DNA of 64,000 bases from an uncultured virus (IMG/VR IMGVR_UViG_3300025128_000023) (Duplodnaviria; Heunggongvirae; Uroviricota; Caudoviricetes): the IMG/VR virus record IMGVR_UViG_3300025128_000023; one strand, 5' to 3'. Of this stretch, positions 1,962 through 64,000 are shown in pieces (the first letter of the stretch is position 1; the number at the start of each line of letters is the position of its first letter). The notes below the pieces were generated by a model that was given only the letters and a program-made list of their open reading frames with translations, was not told where the DNA came from and made no database searches. The position numbers and the translations under genes are program-made.

Positions 1962-3599
1962 ATGAGCAACCAAGGATATATCCCTAAAGACTTAACCTTT
2001 GATAGCAAAGGCAGACAAAAGCTAATTGAAGGAATCACCAAAATTTCCAAAGCAGTTAAGAGTACACTCGGCCCACGCGGGAAGACAGTGTTAATAGAAT
2101 CCCCTGATCACTTAGGAGGAATTACAATTACTAAGGATGGAGTGACTGTTGCTAAAAGTATTTACTTAGACGATCCAGTTGAGAACCTATCAATTCAAAT
2201 GATGAAGGATGCAGCCAACCGAACCGCAAGTGTTGCAGGTGATGGGACAACAACTGCTATTGTTTTGACTGAGGCTTTGATAAAAGCTGGTAACATTCAC
2301 ATTACTCCCGATATGAATACCACTGAAGTGATTCGACACATAAACAAAGTCAGTGAGTATATACTTTCAGTATTGAAACGAAGAGCAGTCGATGTAGATG
2401 ACAAAGCATTAGTAGAGGTTGCAAGTATATCAGCTAACAATGATGTAGAGATTGGTGAGATAATTAGTAAAGCATATGAAAAAGTTGGGAAGCATGGAAT
2501 CGTTACAGTTGAAAAGTCTATGACTTCGGAAACATATGCGGAAGTTACTAATGGAATTAAAGTAGATAGAGGATATACATCCAACCTATTTATAAACGAC
2601 CAAAGAAAAGATGAATGTATACTTGAAGATGTAAAAGTTTTAGTGTGTGATACTGAGATTAGCAACATACTACAAATTGAAACTATACTTAAACCAATCA
2701 TTCAACAAAATCAAAAGCTACTTATCATTGGACAATGCTCACAAAATGTAATAAACACTTTGGCCGCGAATGTTGTTCGTAATGGCTTGAAGCTATGTAA
2801 TATTATTCCACCAAACTTTGGATATAAGAAAAATGAATTAATGCAAGACATTGCAGTATCAGTAGGTGCTAAGTATTTTTCAGAATCTACTGGTGATGAC
2901 TTGAGTTTGATTACACCCAACGACCTGGGATATGCAGATAAAATTATTGTAGGTAAAGAATCATCAGTAATAATTAAACACAATCAACTTACTGAAGAAA
3001 TAAAACAAAGAATAGAAGAACTAAAAGAACAACAAGAAAACACAAAGCATAATGAAGAAAAGAAATTTATCAATGAAAGGATCGCAAGTCTTAGTGGTGC
3101 AATTGGTTGTATTTATGTTGGAGGTAACAGTGATGTAGAACAAAAAGAAAAATTTGACCGAGTCGATGACTCGGTATGCGCTGTCAAATCTGCACTTGAT
3201 GAAGGTATCATCGCGGGTGGAGGAATAGCCTTGTGGGAAATTGCCGATGGACTTGGTGGAGTTGCACCTTTAGATAAAGACAAGGAAGCATCTAAAGAAG
3301 AAAAGGTTGCATACCACATAATGCATGAAACTATAAGAACCCCTTTAATTCAGATATTAGAAAATGCAGGTAAGGATTATAGTAAGATAACCAACGAGTT
3401 TAAAAAAGCAAAAAACAAAAACAAGATATGTTATGGATATGATGCCAAGAACGAAAAGTATGGAAACATGTTTAAGTTAGGAATCATCGATCCTTTAAAA
3501 GTAACCAAGAATGCATTAATAAATGCAGTCAGTGTAGCGACTACTATACTATCTACGAATGCTATAGTAACTCATGCACGAATAAACCAAAAGAAATAA
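1962..3599 (+). CDS. groEL: Chaperonin GroEL (Cpn60)
   Basis: TLGPRG, ITKDGVTVAK, AGDGTTTA and GIIDPLKVTK motifs; no GGM tail. Confidence 0.97.
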   Translation: MSNQGYIPKDLTFDSKGRQKLIEGITKISKAVKSTLGPRGKTVLIESPDHLGGITITKDGVTVAKSIYLDDPVENLSIQMMKDAANRTASVAGDGTTTAIVLTEALIKAGNIHITPDMNTTEVIRHINKVSEYILSVLKRRAVDVDDKALVEVASISANNDVEIGEIISKAYEKVGKHGIVTVEKSMTSETYAEVTNGIKVDRGYTSNLFINDQRKDECILEDVKVLVCDTEISNILQIETILKPIIQQNQKLLIIGQCSQNVINTLAANVVRNGLKLCNIIPPNFGYKKNELMQDIAVSVGAKYFSESTGDDLSLITPNDLGYADKIIVGKESSVIIKHNQLTEEIKQRIEELKEQQENTKHNEEKKFINERIASLSGAIGCIYVGGNSDVEQKEKFDRVDDSVCAVKSALDEGIIAGGGIALWEIADGLGGVAPLDKDKEASKEEKVAYHIMHETIRTPLIQILENAGKDYSKITNEFKKAKNKNKICYGYDAKNEKYGNMFKLGIIDPLKVTKNALINAVSVATTILSTNAIVTHARINQKK

Positions 3600-51157: not shown

Positions 51158-51429
51158 AAAAACTAAAACAATTTAGTATAGAAGACTTTGATGAATACTC
51201 TTGTATGTATAACAGTTATTTGGTTCTAACTGGTAAAGCTACTTATGAAGAGATATTAGAAAAAGATGATGGGGCGGCTTTTATTTTTAACCCTACCAAA
51301 CATTATGTTCCCTTAGATGATGATGCCTATGATATACTTATGGAATACTTTAGCGAAATAGAAGAGTATGAAATGTGTGGAGAACTATCCAAAGCTAAAT
51401 CTTTAGCATCTGTAATATCTCTTATTTAA
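51154..51429 (+). CDS. Hypothetical protein
   Basis: ATGA-coupled ORF; C-terminal YF...EEYE.C..L. Confidence 0.7.
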   Translation: MKKLKQFSIEDFDEYSCMYNSYLVLTGKATYEEILEKDDGAAFIFNPTKHYVPLDDDAYDILMEYFSEIEEYEMCGELSKAKSLASVISLI

Positions 51430-51745
51430 AATTATGCTTATAATTTTTTCGTTCTGCTTCTAACTTATAATGTTGGAATGCAAAGAAACCATGTACATGA
51501 GAATCAGTTGGAAAGAAATACTTCCAACCTTTCGATCTTCCTTTATTAATATAATAACAAAAAGCTACTGCTAATTTACCAGTTGATTTCTTAAAATTAA
51601 TTACTGCAGAATCATCAGAGATAGGGATGACTTCATCAACTAAGAAGGTTTCGTTGTTGACATTACCTGATCTGTTAAAGTTAGAAAATCTTTCTGCTAC
51701 TGTCGTAGCAAATTGACTGAGCTCTACCACTCGTTCTTTTCTCAT
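51422..51745 (-). CDS. Hypothetical protein
   Basis: ORF. Confidence 0.75.
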   Translation of the reverse strand: MRKERVVELSQFATTVAERFSNFNRSGNVNNETFLVDEVIPISDDSAVINFKKSTGKLAVAFCYYINKGRSKGWKYFFPTDSHVHGFFAFQHYKLEAERKNYKHNFK

Positions 51746-51933
51746 ATTTCATCGGTTAAGGACTGAATTAATTCAGCACAAACCTTACAGATGTGTTGAG
51801 CATGTAGCTTTGCAGCTTCATGGTCTCTATCCATTAAATCCTCATATAGTTCATCGACAGAGTCGTGTAGACTATTAGACACATGGTTAACATGTGCTAT
51901 TGCATTTAAATCATCTGCCGATATTTTGGCCAT
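51742..51933 (-). CDS. Hypothetical protein
   Basis: ORF with ATGA overlap. Confidence 0.7.
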   Translation of the reverse strand: MAKISADDLNAIAHVNHVSNSLHDSVDELYEDLMDRDHEAAKLHAQHICKVCAELIQSLTDEI

Positions 51934-51936
51934 CTA

Positions 51937-52587
51937 TTAATCCATTGATGTTAGTAACAATGTCCCAATTGCTGCATCAATCTTTTTGATGGTTCTGTAT
52001 ATTATTTTTGATTTTTGTTTTACTTCTTTGCGTTCACTCATTGTTGAATCACACCCTAAGTTACAATATAAATTGCAATCTACTTGTAAAAGTGTATCAA
52101 TTTTTCTTTTTTTAGACCAAGTTTTATATTCATAGATTTTTTCCGCATCATCAACAGTGTATTTACAATCTTTTTTTGCCCATACTTCCATATTATCTAT
52201 TTTAGTTTTCAAAAAGTTATCATTTAAATTAAGGATTTCATTTTGTTTTTCCAAAGATTTGAGTCTTTTTTGTAATTTATTTAGAACATTATTAGGATTT
52301 TCTTGTACAATTCCACTCCATTCCTCTAAAATAGAGAGGTATTTGACTTCTAAATGAGGATTAGCTTTTATCATATATGGAAACTCTTTCAGTGCATGAA
52401 TGATTGTTGCATGGTTTTTAGAAAAGACATTAGCTATGTCTTTTAGTTTATAACTACCATACCTTCTCAGTATTGTGTATATAATAGCACGAGCTTCTAT
52501 GTATCTTATTTGTCTGCTTTTAGAAAATATATCAGGCAACAATAGATGTTGTGATGTGATGTTGATTAATGAGTCTATTTTTTTCAT
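51937..52587 (-). CDS. Protein with DnaA domain IV-like HTH
   Basis: KSRQIRYIEARAI...LKDIANVFSKNHATIIHA. Confidence 0.75.
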   Translation of the reverse strand: MKKIDSLINITSQHLLLPDIFSKSRQIRYIEARAIIYTILRRYGSYKLKDIANVFSKNHATIIHALKEFPYMIKANPHLEVKYLSILEEWSGIVQENPNNVLNKLQKRLKSLEKQNEILNLNDNFLKTKIDNMEVWAKKDCKYTVDDAEKIYEYKTWSKKRKIDTLLQVDCNLYCNLGCDSTMSERKEVKQKSKIIYRTIKKIDAAIGTLLLTSMD

Positions 52588-52903
52588 TTGATTTGATATA
52601 ACTATTTAAATTAATTAAGTCTAAGTAATCATCTAATGTAATCATTATTAAATTACTTAGTGTTGTAACCATCCCAGGTTCTTTTACTATCTCAAGAGCA
52701 AAGGGTTGTGCCACATTATCTATATGAACTACACCACCTAATACATAGGATCTTAATTCATTTGGTGGAAGATCGGTTACATGATCTTCTATAAACTTTC
52801 CTATTTTAAAAGCAACCAATGGATGTAATATATGAAGTGCATCCATAAAATCATCTTCCATTTCATATCCACTATCCTTTATATATTTCTGTTCTAACAC
52901 CAT
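52532..52903 (-). CDS. Hypothetical protein
   Basis: ORF; start uncertain. Confidence 0.6.
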   Translation of the reverse strand: MVLEQKYIKDSGYEMEDDFMDALHILHPLVAFKIGKFIEDHVTDLPPNELRSYVLGGVVHIDNVAQPFALEIVKEPGMVTTLSNLIMITLDDYLDLINLNSYIKSNEKNRLINQHHITTSIVA

Positions 52904-53111
52904 GGTTGTCTAATTCTTTTAATCTATACTCTTGCAACTTAGACACTTTACCTTCTGGTTTTTTTATTTCAGAAAACAAAACATCACAGTTTGGTGGTAT
53001 AGCTATTAAATCTGGTATGCCATTCTTGTTGGTCTTTAATAATTTAATAACATAGTACCCTTCATCCTCTAACTCTTTAATTCTTTTAGCTTGTATCTTC
53101 TGCTCTGTCAT
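52872..53111 (-). CDS. VRR-NUC-like nuclease
   Basis: E..IQ...GIPDL...FSEIKKPEGKVSKLQ. Confidence 0.8.
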   Translation of the reverse strand: MTEQKIQAKRIKELEDEGYYVIKLLKTNKNGIPDLIAIPPNCDVLFSEIKKPEGKVSKLQEYRLKELDNHGVRTEIYKG

Positions 53112-53114
53112 ATT

Positions 53115-53477
53115 TTAATTACCTCTTTTACCAGGATTAACTGGGGTTGGGGGAGGGTTTACTCCACTTGGAGCAGGCTTAATAACTGGCTGAGAATTAT
53201 TGTTTGAATTACTATTATTAGGTATTGGGTTGGGTTTATTCCAACTTGGGGAATAAGTTGGAGCACCATTCCAATGATAATAATTCCAATATCTTGGATA
53301 GGAATGAACATTATCATAAATACGATATATGTTTGTTGGCTTGATGGCTTCAATAGGAATTTTTAAAGTATCACCTTCTTCTGTTACAGCTAAGACATGA
53401 CTTACCTTTATATCCTTTTGGTAATATATAGGTGAACAACCTATAAACAACAACATAAAAATTATATACTTTCTCAT
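53115..53477 (-). CDS. Putative lipoprotein
   Basis: MRKYIIFMLLFIGC lipobox; Pro/Asn-rich tail. Confidence 0.65.
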   Translation of the reverse strand: MRKYIIFMLLFIGCSPIYYQKDIKVSHVLAVTEEGDTLKIPIEAIKPTNIYRIYDNVHSYPRYWNYYHWNGAPTYSPSWNKPNPIPNNSNSNNNSQPVIKPAPSGVNPPPTPVNPGKRGN

Positions 53478-53478
53478 A

Positions 53479-54711
53479 CTACAAAGTTAATAAATCCTTT
53501 TTGAAGTGAGTTAGCGTGTAATCCTTCTTCTTAACTACTGCTTTGTATATCTGATCCTCAATGCCTCCCTTGGAAAAAATCCAATATACTTTATTATATA
53601 ACCTATCCTTTGTAGTCATCCTATCTCGTGACTGCCAGTAACTCGTAGCACTAAAGTCAATGTTATAATATACTAATGCTACTGCTTGTTTTAAACTTAT
53701 ACCTTCTCTTCCACTTACTATCTGTAAAGCAATGCTTTTGTCAGTGTTACAAAACTCTTCCAGTGTGTTACATATTGATTCACCAAACACATCTTTGATA
53801 GCTTCATACTCTGCAGTAAACTTATAGAAGATAGCAATCTTTTTATTTTTAAACATACTTTGTATAAACTTAGCTTTGGTTAAATCTAATACCATAGACT
53901 TACCACTCTCAAACTTTACAGTACCTGAATATAGTTGATGTGTTTTAGACATCAGCTTCACTGCTGTGTCGGCTAACACCACCTGATCCTTACCTTCTAT
54001 AACTCTATCAGTGCTAAGTCTTTTAATTATATTTCTTAAATCACTGGGCACATCAACATATAATATTTCCTCATTTGTTTGAACTTTGAATCCAGCTTCT
54101 TTCTGTGTATAAGATATAGTATATGGCTTCATCATATCTATAATAGATTGAAGTCCTTTACTGTAATCATTAATATAATTACCATTAATTTTTCTTTGTC
54201 GTACATCCACATATGTTTTAGCAAATGCATAGAAGTTATTAAACTTTCTAAAAGGATTGTTTCGTATTCCACACACTTGATGATACATCTGACTGTATGA
54301 TTCAGGAGTAGGAGTGCCTGAAAGCAGTATGGTATATGGCTCATGAGACAGTAATATATCCATAATCTGTCTCGCCCTCTTACTTTTTTTAGGAAAAGCA
54401 CCTAAAGTGTGTGCTTCATCACAAATTAATGCGTCCCATGAGACATCACTTGGAACTTTATGAAGACTCTCGTAGTTAATTACTAATAAATTATAAGTGT
54501 GGTTTAATTGTTGATAGTCATTCTCAATACTTGAGATAGCTTTTTTCTTAGTAACAAATAGACAGTTCGTGACTGGCAGAAGGCTCACCATACTCAAACT
54601 CGTAGCTGTCTTACCAGTACGAACCTCCATAGCAAGATACAAAAATTTATGATCTTCTAATATAGGTAAACCTTTATTTACTATCTGTTGTTGGTAATCT
54701 CTTAGCTTCAA
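53479..54711 (-). CDS. SF2 (SNF2-like) helicase
   Basis: LRDYQ, RTGKT, DEAH, LSGTP, GREGISL and QSRDR motifs. Confidence 0.85.
   Translation of the reverse strand: MKLRDYQQQIVNKGLPILEDHKFLYLAMEVRTGKTATSLSMVSLLPVTNCLFVTKKKAISSIENDYQQLNHTYNLLVINYESLHKVPSDVSWDALICDEAHTLGAFPKKSKRARQIMDILLSHEPYTILLSGTPTPESYSQMYHQVCGIRNNPFRKFNNFYAFAKTYVDVRQRKINGNYINDYSKGLQSIIDMMKPYTISYTQKEAGFKVQTNEEILYVDVPSDLRNIIKRLSTDRVIEGKDQVVLADTAVKLMSKTHQLYSGTVKFESGKSMVLDLTKAKFIQSMFKNKKIAIFYKFTAEYEAIKDVFGESICNTLEEFCNTDKSIALQIVSGREGISLKQAVALVYYNIDFSATSYWQSRDRMTTKDRLYNKVYWIFSKGGIEDQIYKAVVKKKDYTLTHFKKDLLTL
53482..53489 (-). promoter_or_regulatory. -7 promoter element TAACTTTG
   Basis: TAnnTTTG 4 nt upstream of the lipoprotein ATG. 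Confidence 0.5.
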
Positions 54712-56051
54712 AGTATATCTTTTAATTGTTGAACAACTGCATATACCACATCTACTGTCACTGCATTACCACATGTCTTATATCTTTGAGTATTACTAAC
54801 TGTTTTTATTTCTCCATTATAATCCCCCATTTTTGTCCAATCATCAGGAAAACCCTGTAGTCTTTCACATTCAATAGGTGTTAATCTTCTTATTTTACCA
54901 GTAGTTTTCTCTAATTTTTTTAACATAGACAAATACTCTGAAGAAGATCCTCCTCTTCCTATTGCCCCAGTAAGTGTGCCACTTACTGATTCATCTACCT
55001 TTAAGTTGTCCATTTTATCTTGTTGATTATCATTTAATATGATTCCATTTGGCTCAGAAGAACGAATAGTAAAAGCATCATCCCCTTCTTGTTTGATAGC
55101 ATTACCATAGTTTTTAGAATTACCTAATTGTGTAGGCACTACCACACTATCCAAGGGGTGTGTAGTTACTGCATTAGAAACATCATCTTCCCTAATTTCT
55201 AATCTCTTAGACCTATTATCTTCTTCTCCTTTAGGTTTTTGTCTTGGGTAAGTTCTTAGTGCTCCTGAAATAGCCAGTGGTGGCATAGTGCTAATATCTT
55301 TTTCACTATGTCTTCTTGCAGATAAACAAGGGCTTTCATCATCTTCTCTTATTCTCAGACCTTCATCATTTCGATAGTCTGCCATCTTTACATAAGTATC
55401 AGAAGAGCCCATCTTCCAATACCTGGCAGTTATTGTTCGTGCAGATCGAGGTCTCCCACTTGAAAGTTCCCCTTCTTTGTCCCCTGTCGATCCATTAGGA
55501 ACTGTGTCATCTTTTTGGATAGGAAAAATTCCTTTCCAATCTCTTGGGGGGTCTGCAGAATATCCGACAAGGTAGATTCTCTCTCTGTTTTGGGGTAAAA
55601 ACCACGATGTATTACACAGTTGCCATTCAAGTCTATAGCCCCCAATGTCGGTAAAGGCTTGGAGGATTGCCGCAAAGTCTTCGCCAGAGTTTGAGGAGAA
55701 AGTTCCTTTAACATTTTCCCAGATAAAAACTCTTGGTCTGCATTCCCGAATGAGCCTAATTGCTTCAAGGATAAGGCTTGATCTTTCGCCATCCATCCCC
55801 CTACGCTTTCCTGCCAAGCTAAAGTCTTGACAAGGGCTTCCAAAGGTGATAACATCGATTTTTGGTAATTGTTCTCTTCGAACATCTGTAACTGATCCGA
55901 CATATGTACTATTTTTAAAGTTATGTTTATATATTGCTATAGCATGTTGGTCTACCTCAGAAAAATAAGAGTCACATTCATAGCCAGCTCTTTCAAATCC
56001 AAGTTTAAAACCTCCAATACCTGAAAATAAATCTAATATATTTAATTTCAT
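54708..56051 (-). CDS. DNA cytosine-5 methyltransferase
   Basis: DLFSGIGG, GSPCQDFS, ENVKG, PQNRERIY, RRLTPIECERLQGFP and GNAV motifs. Confidence 0.95.
   Translation of the reverse strand: MKLNILDLFSGIGGFKLGFERAGYECDSYFSEVDQHAIAIYKHNFKNSTYVGSVTDVRREQLPKIDVITFGSPCQDFSLAGKRRGMDGERSSLILEAIRLIRECRPRVFIWENVKGTFSSNSGEDFAAILQAFTDIGGYRLEWQLCNTSWFLPQNRERIYLVGYSADPPRDWKGIFPIQKDDTVPNGSTGDKEGELSSGRPRSARTITARYWKMGSSDTYVKMADYRNDEGLRIREDDESPCLSARRHSEKDISTMPPLAISGALRTYPRQKPKGEEDNRSKRLEIREDDVSNAVTTHPLDSVVVPTQLGNSKNYGNAIKQEGDDAFTIRSSEPNGIILNDNQQDKMDNLKVDESVSGTLTGAIGRGGSSSEYLSMLKKLEKTTGKIRRLTPIECERLQGFPDDWTKMGDYNGEIKTVSNTQRYKTCGNAVTVDVVYAVVQQLKDIL
55430..55903 (-). CDS. Nested alternative-frame ORF inside the C5 methylase (putative beta-polypeptide)
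   Basis: 157-codon open frame with ESTLSDILQ...KEFFLS. Confidence 0.5.
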   Translation of the reverse strand: MSDQLQMFEENNYQKSMLSPLEALVKTLAWQESVGGWMAKDQALSLKQLGSFGNADQEFLSGKMLKELSPQTLAKTLRQSSKPLPTLGAIDLNGNCVIHRGFYPKTERESTLSDILQTPQEIGKEFFLSKKMTQFLMDRQGTKKGNFQVGDLDLHEQ

Positions 56052-56052
56052 A

Positions 56053-58461
56053 TTAAAATGGGAAGTCTGATTGTTCTTCCAGTTTATGTTTACTTATAAA
56101 TCTAATCCATTTTCCTGGATTATCTCTTCCTTCTTGTGGTGCACATTCCCATTTAAACTCTGCGAAAGCACACAACCATTTGTAGAATCTTCTACGAGGT
56201 ACTGTCATCTTAGACTTTGGAGCAAAGTCAGGGTTCTCTTCTATAAAATCTAAATACAAATCATTCAGAAATATCTTGGTGTTTAACACCAACTTGTCGT
56301 TGACTGTACCACCTACAACACCACACCATTCAATAAACTCGTGGCATGTTTCGGCAGATAATTTTCTAACCTTCAAGTTAACAAAATCACTTTGGATTAA
56401 TCCATACTGCAAGTAGAGTTGAAGACATTCAATCATAAACACATCGAACTGACACCACTCCTCATCATCCCATTCACCAAACATCATCTTGCCAAACTCT
56501 TTTAATGGAGTAAAATCTTTCGTATAATACTGGGCTAATTCTAACTCCCACTTTCTTCTTTCGAAGGATGAGCCTTTACCTTTGATAGCATAGTTAGTTG
56601 TAATAGCTACCTTTGGACTCTTGGCAAATGGTATCTTAATTGCATCTTTGTTTTTCTTTTCAAGAGTTAATCCTTCTGTAACTACAGAGAATAATCTTTC
56701 AAAGTTAAAGTGTTTGCTTACATCATCAAAGCATAGTATCTGTGTGTCTGCACTAACTAACTGATATGCAAAGCTTCTTTCAAAGTTAAATGACTTACCA
56801 TCAATTACGACTACCTTCTTCATCTGTGATATCCCATTCATAAATAAACCCTTACCAGTACCCCCTTCTGGATTGTCTGATATAACCTCATCATTTAAGA
56901 TTGTAGCTGGGCAGTATGCTAAATTTTTATAAGCATGAAGTAGATATCCTATTGTAGATTTCATCGATCTGACTCTACTTTCATCTTGACCACATATGTT
57001 TGTAATAAAGGTACGATAATCACAAGCCTGTACCTCACACTCTGTAAACACTCTATCAATGACATGATCCTTCCATACATACCCCCCTATATCGAGGTAG
57101 TCTATGATGGTTAGAGCCTCATGCGAAATTTTTACAGCTCCATTTTTATAATATAAATATGCAGTGTCTTTATCATCTTCTATAAAGTACACATCTATAG
57201 AACTAAGCAAGGTCAAGAACTCCTCTCGAAAATACCTGGTGTTCTCTGCAAAGTAATTATAAATAGATAAGTCATCCATCTCTTGTAGATATTCTAAAAT
57301 AAAATCTTTGATTTCTTTTTCTGAGGTGTGGTCAATTAGATTGTTTGTTACCCTTACAAATACATAGTTCTTACTACCTTCAGGATTAAATTTATAAAAG
57401 CCATTCTCCTCTAAGAAATGTTTAAATAATATGTGTACTATTTTTATAGTACCCTTATCATTCTTAGTCCAAAACTTATGATTGGATTGTTCTTCCTCTA
57501 TCCTATTGATTACATTGTCTATTGTAACTTCATCTATTTCCTTCTCTTTTAATTGAGTTCTTATATCTTTTTTAGAGACACCTCTTTTTAGTTTATGTCT
57601 TATCTGATTTACTTTATCTTCATCTTCATAATACTTTTTGCCAAAGTTTTGTTGTTGAGCATATGCACTATCTATAGTTCTTTTAATTTCAGATCTGTCA
57701 AAGTTTCTTGACTCATATTGATTTAAAATATACTCTGCTAAGTTTTGATTAATACCATAATCATTGAAAGCTGCAGCCAATACATATGTGTGATGGTTTC
57801 TTTGCCCTTCATTCATAGGATATTTTTTCTCCCACCACTTAACTAATATCTCTACAATTTTATTTTCATCAGTGACTGGTATCGTTGCTTTATCTACATG
57901 CTTAATATACTCAGTGTATTCCTCTTCTTCTATTCTATCCCAAGTGCTTGATGTTTCATTTATAAATATAAGTGGATCATAAGATTCATAACACACCCTT
58001 GATATATTTTTACTGGTAGTGTCAAAGTTTGGAGACTTAAAATACTTTTCTAAACTTTTAAAATAATTAATATGTTGTTCAGGATCGGTAGGAATCTTCA
58101 CTAATGCTTTTAAACCCTTACCACTGGGAGATATAAATACTGAGTAGATATATTTATTTTTTGTTAGTCTTTCTTTTTCCTGGAGCATGTCTCGATTTGC
58201 ACCATACCCATCAAAGTCTAAGCAAATCAAACCACTGTGTTGATTTAGGGAGTTGTCATTTCGTTGAGTGAATGTTCCAGAAAAACATATAGATGGAAGG
58301 TTTTGTTTTAGTTTATTTCTTTGTTCCTTGTCCTTAGTGTTTCTTATCTTCTTAACTAATTCTTTGGAAGATCCATCTTTTATCCTTTGTAATATAACAT
58401 CAACTGATCTGTAGAAAGGCTGACTGGTATCTTTTATATCCTTGAAGATAGTTATGTTCAT
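56053..58461 (-). CDS. Primase-helicase (VirE-N/BT4734-like primase, PriCT-like region, P-loop ATPase)
   Basis: LP...FSG.F...HSGLICLDFD, FISPSGKGLK, GQRN, GGTGKG and CFDD motifs. Confidence 0.85.
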   Translation of the reverse strand: MNITIFKDIKDTSQPFYRSVDVILQRIKDGSSKELVKKIRNTKDKEQRNKLKQNLPSICFSGTFTQRNDNSLNQHSGLICLDFDGYGANRDMLQEKERLTKNKYIYSVFISPSGKGLKALVKIPTDPEQHINYFKSLEKYFKSPNFDTTSKNISRVCYESYDPLIFINETSSTWDRIEEEEYTEYIKHVDKATIPVTDENKIVEILVKWWEKKYPMNEGQRNHHTYVLAAAFNDYGINQNLAEYILNQYESRNFDRSEIKRTIDSAYAQQQNFGKKYYEDEDKVNQIRHKLKRGVSKKDIRTQLKEKEIDEVTIDNVINRIEEEQSNHKFWTKNDKGTIKIVHILFKHFLEENGFYKFNPEGSKNYVFVRVTNNLIDHTSEKEIKDFILEYLQEMDDLSIYNYFAENTRYFREEFLTLLSSIDVYFIEDDKDTAYLYYKNGAVKISHEALTIIDYLDIGGYVWKDHVIDRVFTECEVQACDYRTFITNICGQDESRVRSMKSTIGYLLHAYKNLAYCPATILNDEVISDNPEGGTGKGLFMNGISQMKKVVVIDGKSFNFERSFAYQLVSADTQILCFDDVSKHFNFERLFSVVTEGLTLEKKNKDAIKIPFAKSPKVAITTNYAIKGKGSSFERRKWELELAQYYTKDFTPLKEFGKMMFGEWDDEEWCQFDVFMIECLQLYLQYGLIQSDFVNLKVRKLSAETCHEFIEWCGVVGGTVNDKLVLNTKIFLNDLYLDFIEENPDFAPKSKMTVPRRRFYKWLCAFAEFKWECAPQEGRDNPGKWIRFISKHKLEEQSDFPF

Positions 58462-58462
58462 T

Positions 58463-58624
58463 CTGTGTTGATTTAATTAAAGTTAATTTACTGACAATCA
58501 ATACTTTATATTTATTTGTGTTGATTGTGTTGAAAATATGTTAAAAAATATATAGAATAAAAATATTAAAAAAATATTTATTCTGATGTGTGAAAAGTGA
58601 AATTTTTATAACACAATTAACACA
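58463..58624. repeat. Iteron-like GTGTTGA/TAACAC array, origin-like element copy 2
   Basis: GTGTTGA at 58465, 58518 and 58527; TAACACAATTAACACA 58609-58624. Confidence 0.65.
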
Positions 58625-58630
58625 AGATGC

Positions 58631-58654
58631 AAAAAAAAGGGGAGATTACTCCCC
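58631..58654 (-). terminator. Rho-independent terminator
   Basis: GGGGAG-TAAT-CTCCCC followed by T8 on the minus strand. Confidence 0.75.
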
Positions 58655-58688
58655 AATTCATTGCACGCCTTTCGACTACCAAACAATC

Positions 58689-58964
58689 TTAAAATGGTAA
58701 GTCAGTTCGTGTGTCTGACTCTGCCACAGCTTGTGGTTGCTCTTTAGTCTCTCCTTGTGGTTTAGGTACAAATTGATCTAACTCCACATAAGGTTTACCT
58801 GAAGATGCAGTTAAAACATTTAGGTTAACCCAACCATTTCGAGCATTACTTTTAAGAAAAGGAATTGCATCCTCTACCTTAACACTTAAATTTCCGATTA
58901 CAAAATCGGGAGCATTTTCTCTTCTCTTGAAGGAAAAGCCATCTGCAAAAACTTTGTCTGCCAT
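58689..58964 (-). CDS. Putative ssDNA-binding protein
   Basis: APDFVIG...GWVNL...KPY.ELD; acidic DLPF C-terminus; next to the annealase and exonuclease. Confidence 0.6.
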   Translation of the reverse strand: MADKVFADGFSFKRRENAPDFVIGNLSVKVEDAIPFLKSNARNGWVNLNVLTASSGKPYVELDQFVPKPQGETKEQPQAVAESDTRTDLPF

Positions 58965-59111
58965 AATTATCTAATTTTAATATTACTCTCCAAGTGTTCA
59001 ATAGTAGCCAGGATGATTTCATCCTTCTCTTGTCTACTTTCACAGATGCTTGGAGTTTCCATCTGTATTATCTTCTTTCCATAGATTCTCTGTTTTAAGT
59101 TAAGACATAAC

Positions 59112-59849
59112 TTACAGAGTTTGTCTATGAATGTACGAATTAATATCATCGTTAGCCTCATCACTAAAAAATTTATTATATATTTCTGTTGCTTGTTCTA
59201 CTTTTCGTTGCCCCGATCTGAGAAATTCAGAAGAGCAATCATATATACCTAACCTGGTAGTGTTCTTACATATAACAAAGAACACCATTGGTTTACCAAA
59301 CATTCTTTGATACAGATATGCTTGACTATCATAATTATAGGTCTTAGCCGAGTACATAAATTTATCGATGTCCGAGCTGGTCTTAATGTCAATAAGATAT
59401 TCTGAATGTACGATATCAGCTTTACCTTTCCACCAATTACCCATAATTTGCTCTACTTGGGGCACTTCATATTCATTGCCCTCTGCATAAATAAAATCAT
59501 ACATCTCCAGGTTACCTTTCATCTTCTCGACCAGTGCATCGATGTGCTCTGCTTCGTGCCTTAACAAAAGTATGTCATCTTTTGGACACATTTCTTTGTA
59601 GGCTTTAGTCGATCTTGATGCAACATCTACGATTTGATAATCTTTAACTTTGTCAGGCTCAATCATACAAGCATGAAAGTAAGATCCTTGAATCATTGGC
59701 TTTGTCGTAAGTTGTGGTACTCTAAATTGTGTAGGATTTTTAAGTAGATATATTATGTCAGAGTTTGACAAATATTGTTTGCCATACTTACCATAATAAA
59801 ACTCATCATTCTTTAGTTTGTCTAAGGCTTGTGCTATAGGCTCTATCAT
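59112..59849 (-). CDS. RecE/ExoVIII-like PD-(D/E)XK exonuclease (DUF3799-like)
   Basis: LSNS, GS.FH...EP, KGKADI...IDIKT, Y..QAYLY. Confidence 0.85.
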   Translation of the reverse strand: MIEPIAQALDKLKNDEFYYGKYGKQYLSNSDIIYLLKNPTQFRVPQLTTKPMIQGSYFHACMIEPDKVKDYQIVDVASRSTKAYKEMCPKDDILLLRHEAEHIDALVEKMKGNLEMYDFIYAEGNEYEVPQVEQIMGNWWKGKADIVHSEYLIDIKTSSDIDKFMYSAKTYNYDSQAYLYQRMFGKPMVFFVICKNTTRLGIYDCSSEFLRSGQRKVEQATEIYNKFFSDEANDDINSYIHRQTL

Positions 59850-60439
59850 TATTTCAAATGTTTACCGAGTTCCTTCTTTACCGTAGTAGTAACCTTATAT
59901 TTAGTTGAAAGGTTTTTAACTATAGCACTCAGACCTAACTCTTTGTTAGCAACAACATACTTCAATACCTTATCCCAGTTATCATCATCTACTTGTAACT
60001 CATAAGTTACATTCTTTGGTTGAGAGATTTTTTTCTCAGTAGCACTTATAACATCTTCTCCAACCCATAAAGACAATCCTAATCCATGCATTGCCACTGC
60101 CTTAGCAGTAGACCTTTGAATAGCAGTGTTAACATCCATAGATGTAATCTTTTCTATTCTGATTGAATTGTTTCTGAAATCCATTATAGGTAGGTAATCG
60201 ATATGCTCTATATCATTTATAGTAATACCGACTTTAACATAAGCAGTTCTGCCATCAGTAAAAAAGTTCAAGCCAGTAGCCTGATCCTCATAAACATTTC
60301 TTTGTGCATTGGGATATCTTAATTTAACGAATGCCCAAGCATTAGCCCAAGATAAATAATCAAAGTTTCCTTTTTTCTCTACCTTATCTTTGATGTTGAC
60401 TTTAGCCAACTCTTCAAAATAATTGTTTTGTTTTGCCAT
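59849..60439 (-). CDS. Sak3/DUF1071-like single-strand annealing protein
   Basis: YLSWANAW, LPIMDFRN, QRS.AKA.AMHGLGL...GED. Confidence 0.85.
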   Translation of the reverse strand: MAKQNNYFEELAKVNIKDKVEKKGNFDYLSWANAWAFVKLRYPNAQRNVYEDQATGLNFFTDGRTAYVKVGITINDIEHIDYLPIMDFRNNSIRIEKITSMDVNTAIQRSTAKAVAMHGLGLSLWVGEDVISATEKKISQPKNVTYELQVDDDNWDKVLKYVVANKELGLSAIVKNLSTKYKVTTTVKKELGKHLK

Positions 60440-60445
60440 TTAATT

Positions 60446-60841
60446 TTAATTTAATTGATTTAACTTCTGTTTTAATTTAGTATACTTATTTAGTATATTT
60501 TCTCTTCTGTTTTTTAAGTTCTGTATATGCTTATCATTCTTCCTGGTGTTAACCTCAGTCTTAATTTTATCTTCAATCAATCCCAACTTAAACAAGCAGT
60601 TTGATATGGATAAATTAACAGAGCCTCTTCTCCAACCACCATGATAGAAGATATTATACTCATCTTCATCTAATATCTTATAGTAGTCTCCACCCTTATT
60701 CATATTGAGCATCTCAATCCTATCTCCAAATCTTTGCATCCTCACACCCGATCCGATAATCAACTCTCCCTTTGGGACTTGTTGTAGGACCGCCGATGCA
60801 TCCCCAAGTGCTTGTAACCATATCTCTTCTAAACTATACAC
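60446..60841 (-). CDS. Hypothetical protein
   Basis: ORF. Confidence 0.75.
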   Translation of the reverse strand: MYSLEEIWLQALGDASAVLQQVPKGELIIGSGVRMQRFGDRIEMLNMNKGGDYYKILDEDEYNIFYHGGWRRGSVNLSISNCLFKLGLIEDKIKTEVNTRKNDKHIQNLKNRRENILNKYTKLKQKLNQLN

Positions 60842-61130
60842 TCTCTTTTATTTTATTAACCAAGTGTTTGTAGTCAGGATCGTTGTCTATAAGTTTCTTT
60901 GCTCTTTCATATCCATGAAGGATAGAACTCATAGGAACATCATAGCCATGATCCTCTAAATAAGACTTAATAAATGTAAGTCTAATTGGTCGTTCCATAC
61001 ATAGCAGATATAATATCTGTCGTGCATCAACTTGGTTTCTTCTTTTAGATTTTTCGAACAACTTGTCCATTTCTAAATGAAATGCCTTCGCTACAGCTTT
61101 AGCATACTTTTCGAATATTTCTCTTTTCAT
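60834..61130 (-). CDS. DnaA domain IV-like HTH protein
   Basis: VAKAF...KSKRRNQVDARQILYLLC...SSILHG. Confidence 0.7.
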   Translation of the reverse strand: MKREIFEKYAKAVAKAFHLEMDKLFEKSKRRNQVDARQILYLLCMERPIRLTFIKSYLEDHGYDVPMSSILHGYERAKKLIDNDPDYKHLVNKIKESV

Positions 61131-61456
61131 TTAAATTCTTTTAATTTTTCTCGTTTTGATTCTAATAACTTATCTTTAATTACTTGGTCCTCTTTTAATA
61201 TTTGTACTTTAAGCAGAATTAAATATCCAATCAAATCTTTAAGTGTGTCCTCTGACTTCAAAGGATCATCAAAACCTAACTTCTTGATTCTACTTAACTT
61301 GTCATCTATTCGTGCCAAGATTCCTTCCTTAGCCGATAGCTTACTAAATATTTGTGGAGGATGATTGGCAGTGTCTCCATAGTTCTTGTTCTTTTCTATA
61401 AGTAACATCACTACTTCTCTTCCCACTTCTTTTATAAAGTCTGCAGTATTTTTCAT
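61127..61456 (-). CDS. Nucleotide modification associated domain 1 (DUF1599-like) protein
   Basis: KNKNYG...RIDDKLSRI...EDTLKDLIGY; start moved to ATG 61456. Confidence 0.75.
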   Translation of the reverse strand: MKNTADFIKEVGREVVMLLIEKNKNYGDTANHPPQIFSKLSAKEGILARIDDKLSRIKKLGFDDPLKSEDTLKDLIGYLILLKVQILKEDQVIKDKLLESKREKLKEFK

Positions 61457-61623
61457 TGTGTAAATAAAATTAGTAATAATGTTAAGACTAAACAAACAAA
61501 GGAGAAAGTAAACAACTTCATGTCTCTTGTATATCTCTGATCAGACTTGCCTTGTCTACTTCTAAATAGCCTTACTTTTTTTCTTTTCAGAATCTCCTTA
61601 CCCTCATTTATATAATGTTTCAT
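61453..61623 (-). CDS. Small membrane protein (56 aa)
   Basis: Manual translation ...FRSRQGKSDQRY...LFTFSFVCLVLTLLLILFTQ; ATGA overlaps at both ends. Confidence 0.6.
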   Translation of the reverse strand: MKHYINEGKEILKRKKVRLFRSRQGKSDQRYTRDMKLFTFSFVCLVLTLLLILFTQ

Positions 61624-61805
61624 TTTTTTGTTCTTAGCTTTTTAATAATTCTTATTGCTTGTTTCATTTTTTTGTCCAGGTGGTTTTCTAAAGCCTCTAC
61701 CCTGTGCACTAAAAAATTGATACGATCTTCGTTGTAATTCATAGCTTCTTTAAGTTTTTTGTTTTCGTTATATATTTTATCTATACTACTCATCTTTAAA
61801 TCCAT
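61620..61805 (-). CDS. Small coiled-coil protein
   Basis: ORF. Confidence 0.6.
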   Translation of the reverse strand: MDLKMSSIDKIYNENKKLKEAMNYNEDRINFLVHRVEALENHLDKKMKQAIRIIKKLRTKK

Positions 61806-61977
61806 ATACTATCCAGGACTTATCAGTTTCGCCTATGGCATCACTGATCCACCATTCATTATTTCTATTATTGAAATACTCAATCTCACTCATTAAGTGA
61901 TCTTGCTCAAACTCTTTCGAGATAATTACTTTGCCACTGTCCTTGACAGACCAAAGCTGTGTAAATAGGTCTTCCAT
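61786..61977 (-). CDS. Hypothetical early protein
   Basis: ORF. Confidence 0.6.
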   Translation of the reverse strand: MEDLFTQLWSVKDSGKVIISKEFEQDHLMSEIEYFNNRNNEWWISDAIGETDKSWIVYGFKDE

Positions 61978-62266
61978 CTACCACCACAAGCCCACACCTT
62001 TTGAGTGTGAGCTGGGCAGTTCTAAACTAACTAATTATAACACTTGATCCATAAGTAGACTAAATAAAGTAGTGTGGATCATCACTATCTTTATCGCTTT
62101 TATATTCTTTAATAGGAAAAAGGTCTGACAGAAATTTGTCAAAGACTTTCTCTTGGTACTTTATCAAGTTAGCTTGATTGTTCTTACTTTGTTTTGATTT
62201 AACCATAGATTTAATTTTAATTATAACACACTTGCAAATAAAAGGAATTTCTAAATCAATTCCAAA

Positions 62267-62452
62267 TTATTTCTTTTTAAATTTTATTATTTCAAAATTT
62301 TTAGCCCCAAAGGGTGCTTGTTGTTCTGCTTTTTGAATGGCTTGTCGAGGACTTATTGCCTCGACTTCCACTCTATCGTAATCGTAGCCACAATCTTCAT
62401 CTCCATGAAAATGCAGAAACCAATACTCAACTATATATTCCTTTATTGGCAT
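62267..62452 (-). CDS. Hypothetical early protein
   Basis: ORF; VEA.S...AI..A motif. Confidence 0.65.
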   Translation of the reverse strand: MPIKEYIVEYWFLHFHGDEDCGYDYDRVEVEAISPRQAIQKAEQQAPFGAKNFEIIKFKKK

Positions 62453-62841
62453 AATCCAGTCCCCCTTGTTATTCCAGTTTGAACAAACTCCATAACCTCT
62501 ATCTCATTGTGCTCTATATTGATTGTGCCCATATCATCAAACTCTTCTCCCCTCCATCTCACACGACCAGTGATTGAAAGGTTGTTGGGTTTGAAGAAAT
62601 ACTTTATTAAGTATTCTAACCAATCGATGTAGCTATAAAACTTCTCGCCCCCATCCCATATTAAATAATGAGTGTCGGCATATTCTTCTACAATCCATTG
62701 TAGCCATATTGAAGGCTTTCCATTTGGTTGATAACCATCTTCGTGCCTTGTTTCATAAAGAGTGTTCATTGCTTTTAACTCTTTCTTTGTCAGTTTACGA
62801 TTAAATTCAAACTGACCATCAAATTCTGTTGTATATCCCAT
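62443..62841 (-). CDS. Phage hypothetical protein
   Basis: MGYTTEF.G...WDGGEKFY.Y..WL.YLI...G.V.W.GE. Confidence 0.8.
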   Translation of the reverse strand: MGYTTEFDGQFEFNRKLTKKELKAMNTLYETRHEDGYQPNGKPSIWLQWIVEEYADTHYLIWDGGEKFYSYIDWLEYLIKYFFKPNNLSITGRVRWRGEEFDDMGTINIEHNEIEVMEFVQTGITRGTGLCQ

Positions 62842-62843
62842 AA

Positions 62844-63236
62844 TTATAAATTTTTATATTGTTTTAATTGATTATTAACTGAGTCCAGGAGATAGGTTGT
62901 TACCTCCGATTGCAGATCTGCAACATAGTCCCAAAAGTATTCAAGATGGTTGTCCAGATCCTCTACAGCTTTAAGACTAAGATTAGGATCATGCTCTCGG
63001 ATGTCTCCTAAAATTCTCATCACATAAGTATTTAATTCATTTTGAAGAAAATCTATTGGCTTCTTGTCATAGTTATGCAAGTGTGTCCACTCTATATTAA
63101 AGGTCAACAAACTTTCGTAGTCTTCCTTTTCTCTATATGAGTTGTGGTCTTCTAACCACTTATCGACATCATTTGTTACTCCTACTATATACTCTCTCCC
63201 AGTGGATTCAGTATATTTAATTATTGCTATTTTCAT
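62844..63236 (-). CDS. Hypothetical early protein
   Basis: ORF. Confidence 0.7.
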   Translation of the reverse strand: MKIAIIKYTESTGREYIVGVTNDVDKWLEDHNSYREKEDYESLLTFNIEWTHLHNYDKKPIDFLQNELNTYVMRILGDIREHDPNLSLKAVEDLDNHLEYFWDYVADLQSEVTTYLLDSVNNQLKQYKNL

Positions 63237-63247
63237 ATTAATTTAAA

Positions 63248-63463
63248 TTAATTTTTAATTATTTCAGTTACCTCTTCAATCTCCAAGTCTAACTCACTTG
63301 CCACATAATTAATGTGCTTTTGAGTTGTTTGAGACCAGTAGCCCAGTTGATAAAGTTTGTTATTAACTCCATCAATCTGAGCCACTCTCGTTGAATAAGA
63401 GTAGATGTCATCACCTACTCTTGTCAAGTTCGCTTTGTATTTGTCAAATTTTTCTATTGCCAT
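63248..63463 (-). CDS. Small phage early protein
   Basis: SYST.VA...(Y/W)S.TT.KHIN motif. Confidence 0.75.
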   Translation of the reverse strand: MAIEKFDKYKANLTRVGDDIYSYSTRVAQIDGVNNKLYQLGYWSQTTQKHINYVASELDLEIEEVTEIIKN

Positions 63464-63473
63464 ATCCTTTAAT

Positions 63474-63602
63474 TTAAATTGTTATACCTAAAAAGAATAC
63501 TGCATAAGACATATACACAATGCCAAAGCATGCTAATGTTCCCAAGATCCAAGCTACTCCCATAAAGAAGTAGTGTGTAATAATACTGATTTGATTTTTC
63601 AT
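63474..63602 (-). CDS. Small membrane protein (42 aa)
   Basis: Manual translation MKNQISIITHYFFMGVAWILGTLACFGIVYMSYAVFFLGITI. Confidence 0.6.
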   Translation of the reverse strand: MKNQISIITHYFFMGVAWILGTLACFGIVYMSYAVFFLGITI

Positions 63603-63621
63603 AAATTTAATTTTTAATTAT

Positions 63622-63698
63622 ACATTGACTTTCATTTGAAGGGGAGGCAACCTCCCCCATTTAAGTTTCGCCTTGCTCTCAAAGGCTCATCAGAATGT
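63622..63698 (-). ncRNA. Type I hammerhead ribozyme (canonical core)
   Basis: Minus strand reads ACAUU-CUGAUGA-GCCUU UGAGAGC AAGGC-GAAA-CUU...GGGGAGG UUG CCUCCCC...AAG-UC-AAUGU; GUC cleavage site. Confidence 0.92.
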
Positions 63699-63700
63699 TT

Positions 63701-63844
63701 CTAATCGTAAAATTTGTGACCTTGATTCTCGTGCCAACTATTAAAGGCATTTGGATATTCTCTCATCACATAGTTGTGAAGGTCCATCAACTCCTCGATT
63801 TCTTGTATCAATTCTTTTTTACTCATCTTTTTATAGTAATTCAT
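63701..63844 (-). CDS. Small hypothetical protein (47 aa)
   Basis: Manual translation MNYYKKMSKKELIQEIEELMDLHNYVMREYPNAFNSWHENQGHKFYD. Confidence 0.65.
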   Translation of the reverse strand: MNYYKKMSKKELIQEIEELMDLHNYVMREYPNAFNSWHENQGHKFYD

Positions 63845-63854
63845 ATTTATAGTT

Positions 63855-64000
63855 TTAAAATAATTCTTCTTGTGTTTTTTCCCACTTATCTATCTCAGAT
63901 CTGATCTGAGATTCTTGATCAAGAATATCTTTACAATATTCTATCAAGTCTTTTAGTGATTCTATTTCACTATCGGAGGTTGTTTCATAGTCTATGAAGT
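63855..64000 (-). CDS. Hypothetical protein, 3' part only
   Basis: Open frame ...FIDYETTSDSEIESLKDLIEYCKDILDQ...EELF*. Confidence 0.55.
   Translation of the reverse strand, partial: FIDYETTSDSEIESLKDLIEYCKDILDQESQIRSEIDKWEKTQEELF

Follow-up and report, generated by a model that had tools for sequence, protein, structure and literature searches.

The early polycistronic RNA of phage T7 is cut by host RNase III, which leaves 5′-phosphate and 3′-OH ends. Cleavage by ribozymes of the hammerhead class leaves a 5′-OH and a 2′,3′-cyclic phosphate instead, and a synthetic ribozyme insulator placed at promoter junctions, RiboJ, removes the upstream context and standardises the 5′ end. In phages and prophages, Perreault et al. 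described in 2011 clustered hammerheads on either side of single genes or of short blocks of genes, for which the text of their paper proposes processing into single-gene mRNAs and reports that three clustered arrays cleave in vitro and one in E. coli (PMC3088659). A 2019 review repeats the processing idea and calls for more work, and its readable text leaves open what the hundreds of hammerheads of bacteria and phages are for (PMC6765202). According to the open text of a 2026 paper, type I hammerheads located just upstream of start codons in the RNA viruses of fungi and plants are tied to the initiation of translation (PMC13725137). In the main text of the openly readable literature, we found nothing specific on the phage group or the exact layout described here. 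The original prediction knew of no described function for the arrangement; to judge from the open text of both papers, arrangement and processing hypothesis were in print in 2011 (PMC3088659) and again in 2019 (PMC6765202). The explanation has thus been known since 2011, and the two hammerheads reported here, HH-A and HH-B, are an annotation gain for the window and not a discovery.

The window, the whole 64,000-nt stretch of DNA that was analysed, is almost the entire genome of an uncultured marine podophage of the Bacteroidota-infecting kind, since complete relatives measure 60–65 kb; by comparison with one of them (L004), about 1 kb of this phage's genome would lie outside. Minus-strand blocks at 1–1900 and 51422–64000 form one leftward early arm across the window ends. 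The first early operon reads leftward from about 1900, crosses the window start and re-enters at 64000, and in its transcript HH-B comes before HH-A. Elsewhere, the window encodes a BT4734-type primase-helicase, a Sak annealing protein, a PD-(D/E)XK protein, a C5 methylase and a SNF2 helicase. A full-length GroEL-type chaperonin is encoded right after the divergent control region, and a C-rich low-complexity tract lies between the divergent early and late arms (Table 1). Nineteen DNA sequencing runs contain most of the window; one metatranscriptome shares 0.06 of the words. Pfam and PHROGs gave no family of known function for the ORFs flanking the hammerheads, which leaves the host-takeover and antirestriction roles originally proposed for these genes without support.

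Table 1. Positions of the hammerheads, their parts and neighbours, and of other features in the window
Feature	Position	Strand	Description or basis
HH-B, type I hammerhead, core CCGAUGA	271–332	−	descriptor, covariance models, orthologues
HH-B stem I	332–327 with 276–271	−	AAAUCU paired with AGAUUU
HH-B core CCGAUGA	326–320	−	C at 325 in place of the expected U4
HH-B stem II	319–300	−	GUAAAGGUUUAAACACCUAC, bulged (GUA-AA-GGU ... ACC-UAC)
HH-B GAAA	299–296	−	
HH-B stem III	296–278	−	7 bp
HH-B predicted cut	between 277 and 276	−	
ORF upstream of HH-B	334–822	−	162 aa, phrog_10208, stop TAA 336–334
Leader on the predicted downstream product of HH-B	251–276	−	26 nt, AU-rich, SD-less, ATG at 250
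ORF downstream of HH-B	2–250	−	83 aa visible, runs past the window start; no family
HH-A, type I hammerhead, canonical core CUGAUGA ... GAAA ... GUC	63621–63699	−	descriptor, covariance models, orthologue
HH-A stem I	63698–63694 with 63626–63622	−	ACAUU paired with AAUGU
HH-A core CUGAUGA	63693–63687	−	
HH-A stem II	63686–63670	−	5 bp and a 7-nt loop
HH-A GAAA	63669–63666	−	
HH-A stem III, inner GC hairpin	63657–63641	−	GGGGAGG/CCUCCCC, lengthens the 4 bp of stem III
HH-A GUC	63629–63627	−	
HH-A predicted cut	between 63627 and 63626	−	
ORF upstream of HH-A	63701–63844	−	47 aa, stop TAG 63701–63703; homologue before the orthologous hammerhead in L004
Leader on the predicted downstream product of HH-A	63603–63626	−	24 nt, AU-rich, SD-less, ATG at 63602
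ORF downstream of HH-A	63474–63602	−	42 aa, very hydrophobic, start ATG 63602
GTGTTATAA sites	62221–62229, 62035–62043, 58606–58614	−	5 exact matches in the window
GTGTTGA/GTGTTAAT repeats	1720–1900 and 58470–58640		related to GTGTTATAA
Intrinsic-terminator-like hairpin	58639–58654	−	GGGGAGTAATCTCCCC and eight T
GroEL-type chaperonin	1962–3599	+	Cpn60_TCP1, E 1.1e-63
C-rich tract, non-coding	~1100–1340	−	CTCC and CCCAC runs
Weak descriptor match, rejected	51071–51179	+	stems 4/3/3

HH-A carries the conserved hammerhead nucleotide at every core position (C3 U4 G5 A6 N7 G8 A9 ... G12 A13 A14 A15.1, with A15.1-U16.1 and H17), and HH-B does so at all of them but U4. Both begin 1 nt past the stop codon of the upstream ORF (TAG for HH-A, TAA for HH-B) and fill about three quarters of the gap between the genes (77 of 98 nt and 62 of 83 nt, respectively). 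Neither leader contains a GGAGG-like run, and the first 5 nt of the HH-A leader are the 3′ strand of stem I. The layout as first described, a stop codon followed by the ribozyme, the cut, an SD-less leader of about 25 nt and an ATG, is accurate for both elements. The product of the very hydrophobic ORF that follows HH-A is probably a small membrane protein.

How secure is the assignment? A descriptor made of the hammerhead core and three stems in type I order gave three matches in the window: HH-A, HH-B and the weak match listed last in Table 1. In 300 dinucleotide-preserving shuffles, 0.0067 matches of comparable quality were expected per window against the two observed; one such match occurred in 2 of the 300 shuffles and two in none. 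A covariance model built from four type I copies in relatives (R1), run with filters off, found only HH-A and HH-B in the window, with the next best match at E 0.28. Rebuilt from 19 matches (R2), the model scored HH-B at 40.5 bits (E 1.4e-8) and HH-A at 35.5 bits (E 5.8e-7). The shuffles and the covariance-model E-values thus exclude chance. HH-A and HH-B are genuine hammerheads, as the original prediction held on motif grounds and as covariation among relatives confirms (see below). The third descriptor match lies in coding DNA spanning the end of a 2834-aa ORF, is supported by neither covariance model and is probably a chance occurrence. Single-sequence folding reproduced stems II and III, and also stem I when the element was folded in isolation; the folds were not significantly more stable than those of shuffles (z −1.0 to −2.0).

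Rfam at gathering thresholds gave no match anywhere in the window. In E-value mode, HH-A reached 27.7 bits against Hammerhead_3 (RF00008; cut-off 48.5) in a permuted and mismatched register, RAGATH-1-hammerhead (RF03152) scored 16.3 bits against a cut-off of 56.3, and HH-B had no hammerhead match in Rfam at E up to 10. Such sub-threshold scores are a limit of the curated models for variants of this kind, and standard annotation at Rfam thresholds misses the hammerheads of this phage group entirely. No other ribozyme class was found in 51000–64000 at E up to 1.

Fast hammerhead cleavage at cellular Mg2+ needs a tertiary contact between stem I and stem II, by loop–loop interaction, bulge or pseudoknot. 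In these type I copies we identified no partner for a loop–loop contact or pseudoknot, so their activity at cellular Mg2+ is putative. Among HH-B orthologues, stem II and its loop are identical and stems I and III vary, and the constant stem II and loop hint at a possible tertiary contact. In the same ribozyme variant, stem III carries insertions of ~50–70 nt in some relatives and is a minimal hairpin in others (L097, L098, L100).

The core change of HH-B sets it apart: U4 is present in all 18 other aligned copies, and U4C was absent from the seven IMG/VR contigs found to share the HH-B stem II by an exact-pattern scan, which was not exhaustive (it missed the L010 contig, where the pattern is present). 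Because this change is seen in none of the seven contigs with the same stem II, HH-B activity may be reduced. As stated in the passages of Perreault et al. on core variants, U4C considerably lowers hammerhead activity in vitro, and a viroid carrying it is still infectious (PMC3088659). HH-B with U4C may be a slow cutter, a decaying element or the product of an assembly error.

A query with the primase retrieved 186 IMG/VR contigs and, at low identity, phages of Flavobacterium, Polaribacter, Cellulophaga and Nonlabens. Eighty of the contigs were taken with up to 10 kb of flank, and in these loci the type I descriptor gave many matches, all on the primase strand. Searching the window and the 80 loci on both strands (1.46 Mb), R2 gave 22 matches at E up to 1.4e-5; every one of them is intergenic, has the orientation of the primase and lies upstream of it. 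With a descriptor for the type III order, 17 loci yielded 38 distinct copies, likewise all intergenic and on the primase strand, a count that leaves out two alternative registers and a doubtful match in L030. Nine weaker R2 matches are partial matches to these compact type III hammerheads (~51 nt), and two loci (L032 and L037) carry both types in one operon. Several further candidates had neither a proper core nor model support and were left out of the counts: the weak descriptor matches L015:2450 and L023:2451 (6/3/3) and L030:6415, and the R2 matches L012:7989, L051:71 and L027:10851.

Searches of whole records gave the same picture. Among thirty related records, 9 contained strong type I matches (19 in all) and 10 contained type III matches to RF00008 (28 in all; 32–45 bits, every one below 48.5). 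In each genome these matches share the primase strand and cluster in a single stretch of a few kb. Copy number ranges from 0 to 9, with nine type I copies in ~5 kb of G004; at least one hammerhead is present in 18 of the 30 records and none in the other 12, so these elements are dispensable. The original prediction proposed scanning relatives for random positions or orientations, and we found none: all copies lie on the early-gene strand, between ORFs and upstream of the primase, in the same layout. Position and orientation thus support its reading of the elements as operon-processing sites. Its suggestion that further hammerheads may lie outside the window fared less well. The closest relative in which the region is available (L004/G002, primase 86% identical) has exactly two copies in its whole 55-kb record; they lie 1.8 kb apart and are the orthologues of HH-B and HH-A, so that a third copy in this phage is improbable. 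The nearest record of all (G001) is a 44-kb fragment that lacks the hammerhead region. Parts of MW202828.1 (17 kb) and of Flavobacterium phage elemoE_10-3D (25 kb) contained no hammerhead at E up to 0.1, and we found no cultured model carrying such hammerheads among the named relatives searched. A DNA search of 62400–64000 against GenBank phages gave no match.

Covariation in the stems is strong. In an alignment of 19 copies, 99.2% of cells were paired, compared to 66.6% in shuffles and 21–43% with slid partners, and 12 of 14 pairs had changed on both sides; fitting this alignment to the model biases it towards the structure, and independent descriptor matches and orthologue pairs agree with it. 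The HH-A orthologue (L004:1872–1929), for example, has the same stem I and the same upstream protein, and its stems II and III differ from those of HH-A by compensated changes.

Type I and type III copies sit in equivalent slots between genes. In 26 of 28 type I cases, the upstream stop codon is found between −20 and +4 nt relative to the ribozyme 5′ end, often as a TAA inside stem I (GAUUAA, GGUUAA) or as the UGA of the core, and the distance from cut to ATG is 19–32 nt in 27 of 29 copies, which are not all independent because L008 and G004 are near-identical relatives. Type III copies have the stop 13–68 nt before the cut (34 of 36) and the ATG 12–51 nt after the ribozyme. Values that place a type III stop inside the core (−22) are an artefact of choosing the nearest stop; ORFs started at ATG put the stops upstream of the cut. 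A stable hairpin abuts the 5′ side of the type III ribozyme in 37 of 37 copies (mean −13.9 kcal/mol versus −6.3 in shuffles). Its sequence is often GGGAGUGUCUUCAAAGACACUCCC and sometimes an unrelated one of the same shape (e.g., L054:1555–1594, L070:2391–2430 and L059:3830–3869). The upstream product would thus end in a stable stem-loop in both topologies, formed by this hairpin in type III and by the ribozyme body in type I, and the downstream product is predicted to start with a short, bare leader in type I and with the body of the ribozyme in type III. The other gaps in the hammerhead sub-operon of the window are 2–11 nt or overlaps, which makes the hammerhead gaps the sites that need independent initiation.

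Could the same boundaries be transcription start or stop sites? A Bacteroidota promoter consensus had five matches in the window versus 5.4 expected, none near the ribozymes, and a sigma-70 scan stayed below shuffle level, with no promoter-like site beside the ribozymes. The promoter and terminator checks beside the ribozymes thus gave no evidence against a polycistronic transcript. Elsewhere in the early arm, GTGTTATAA occurs exactly in three larger, hammerhead-free gaps (62207–62266, 61978–62059 and 58462–58688) and reads like an extended −10, TGTTATAAT. These sites and the related repeats (Table 1) could serve as internal promoters of the early arm or as sites for a regulator. A terminator-like hairpin lies just upstream of the primase gene, and because of it the early arm may hold more than one transcription unit.

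What do the ribozymes do? The best explanation, to which we assign a probability of roughly 0.7 on the sequence evidence, is that the hammerheads cut the early transcript between cistrons into single-gene or short mRNAs. HH-A and HH-B, both intercistronic and located in the hypervariable opening part of the early operon, would each fold during transcription just past the upstream stop codon and cut themselves 3′ of the GUC. The upstream product would keep its stop codon and have at its 3′ end the compact body of the ribozyme, made of stems II and III, and a 2′,3′-cyclic phosphate; the downstream product would start with a 5′-hydroxyl and an unstructured AU-rich leader of 24–26 nt, just enough for independent ribosome loading. 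Such a cut would part neighbouring cistrons physically, end their translational coupling and give every piece defined ends regardless of the adjacent gene, a self-contained counterpart of the RNase III processing of T7 early RNA by its host. The hammerhead motifs, the covariation of their stems, and where and in which direction they lie in relatives were observed directly; cleavage in vivo, the end chemistry at this locus (established for the class) and effects on stability and translation are inferred. As to the sign of the effect, we infer end protection and uncoupling; a 5′-OH can also mark decay, and a destabilised downstream RNA is as possible as the separately stabilised pieces first envisaged.

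A bolder version of intercistronic cutting, which we put forward tentatively and regard as possible without favouring it, is that the selected trait would be the pair of RNA ends beyond the mere cut, making each element a portable ‘gene punctuation’ cassette. A type I copy would leave its body on the upstream RNA and a bare leader of 19–32 nt on the downstream RNA, and a type III copy would bring its own 5′ hairpin for the upstream RNA and lend its body to the downstream RNA as a 5′ cap-like structure. In hosts that do not use Shine-Dalgarno pairing, a newly acquired early gene would in this way have its 3′ end protected, its 5′ end defined and its translation made independent. If true, this would explain why the ribozymes are concentrated in the most rapidly shuffled part of these genomes.

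The layout data fit equally well with active ribozymes that switch genes off, the 5′-hydroxyl RNA being degraded by a host nuclease or the upstream message being stripped of protection. Cutting could then limit the duration or strength of the first early genes, at a rate that could be tuned by U4C-like variants, upstream translation or ions. The glmS ribozyme offers a precedent, since its 5′-OH product is degraded by RNase J1. In a longer context, single-sequence folding of HH-A gives a competing hairpin of 7 bp into which the stop codon and some of the core are drawn, and a terminating ribosome could in principle affect HH-A folding because of it. Regulated or slow variants in phages are also suggested in the text of Perreault et al. 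(PMC3088659). We nevertheless judge silencing rather unlikely: stable hairpins are kept at the new ends in both topologies, with a dedicated 5′ hairpin in all type III copies, which looks like protection and not exposure, and up to nine copies per operon would be an odd way of silencing genes that the phage keeps.

The genes around the ribozymes change more than the ribozymes themselves. Synteny with relatives extends from the primase to about 62450 (the conserved region starting at 62452), and the ORFs from 62443 onward and at 2–822 are mostly without homologues. The proteins encoded beside the HH-B variant are unrelated between the window, L004, L010 and L008/G004; this argues for a role that depends on the RNA and not on any one gene, and the ribozymes persist as neighbour genes are replaced. 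Could the cassettes then matter mainly as DNA, as shared boundary sequences for recombination among early genes, with RNA cleavage incidental or the elements selfish passengers? Their location in the hypervariable early part, the same variant beside unrelated genes, the near-identical recurrence of whole leaders in G004 and L008 and the span of copy numbers noted above would all agree. We find a mainly DNA-level role improbable, however, as it leaves unexplained why the catalytic core is invariant, why all three stems show compensatory changes, why the strand bias is strict and why the distance to the start codon is fixed. The many compensated differences between orthologous copies further indicate that these are ancient and conserved as RNA elements. 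A role as DNA and a role as RNA are not exclusive.

Circularisation or splicing of the RNA between two ribozymes, by reverse hammerhead ligation or an RtcB-type ligase acting on 5′-OH and 2′,3′-cyclic phosphate ends (the right substrates by class chemistry) to give circular or rearranged messages, was raised in its RtcB form by the original prediction and is barely credible, given that HH-B stem I (AGAUUU) cannot pair with the HH-A 5′ strand (ACAUU), that consecutive stem I pairs in the nine-copy array are compatible in 3 of 8 cases versus 25% of other pairs, with no enrichment, and that Perreault et al. state, with data unshown, that spliced or circular products were sought and none detected (PMC3088659).

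What the present analysis adds is a quantified layout, the finding of two topologies in equivalent slots with an upstream stem-loop, and a location in the hypervariable early part of the genome. The phage group offers a dense natural series, with 0 to 9 copies, two topologies and one core variant, and it yields predictions on end protection and independent translation.

At the level of structure, these elements share with RF00008 and RF03152 the core and the three-way junction, and RAGATH-1, too, has a hairpin placed upstream of a hammerhead and joined to it; their scores stay below the gathering cut-offs of both families. Like RiboJ, they place a self-cleaving ribozyme just upstream of a translation start, and in contrast to that engineered device at promoter junctions they are natural and lie between cistrons. 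The hammerheads of eukaryotic RNA viruses, as described in the open text of PMC13725137, are similar in being type I with a long helix III, in filling a short intergenic region and in having the cut just a few nucleotides short of the following start codon; those viruses, however, use cap-independent translation, and their hammerheads are described there as lacking typical loop–loop contacts. Processing of T7 early RNA likewise cuts between early cistrons and leaves a stem-loop at upstream 3′ ends; RNase III is a host protein, whereas the RNA here would cut itself with no host factor and leave 5′-OH and 2′,3′-cyclic phosphate ends. The closest likeness is to the phage clusters of Perreault et al., which according to their text are also intergenic, co-oriented with the genes and present in several copies per operon (two here) beside varying genes, with natural core variants including U4C. 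The host group differs, being represented here by podophages of the marine Bacteroidota type. Beyond the passages of that paper in open text, the layout is tabulated here, with the stop inside or adjoining the ribozyme and a 19–32-nt leader, and type I and type III hammerheads are found in equivalent slots, the 5′ hairpin always accompanying type III.
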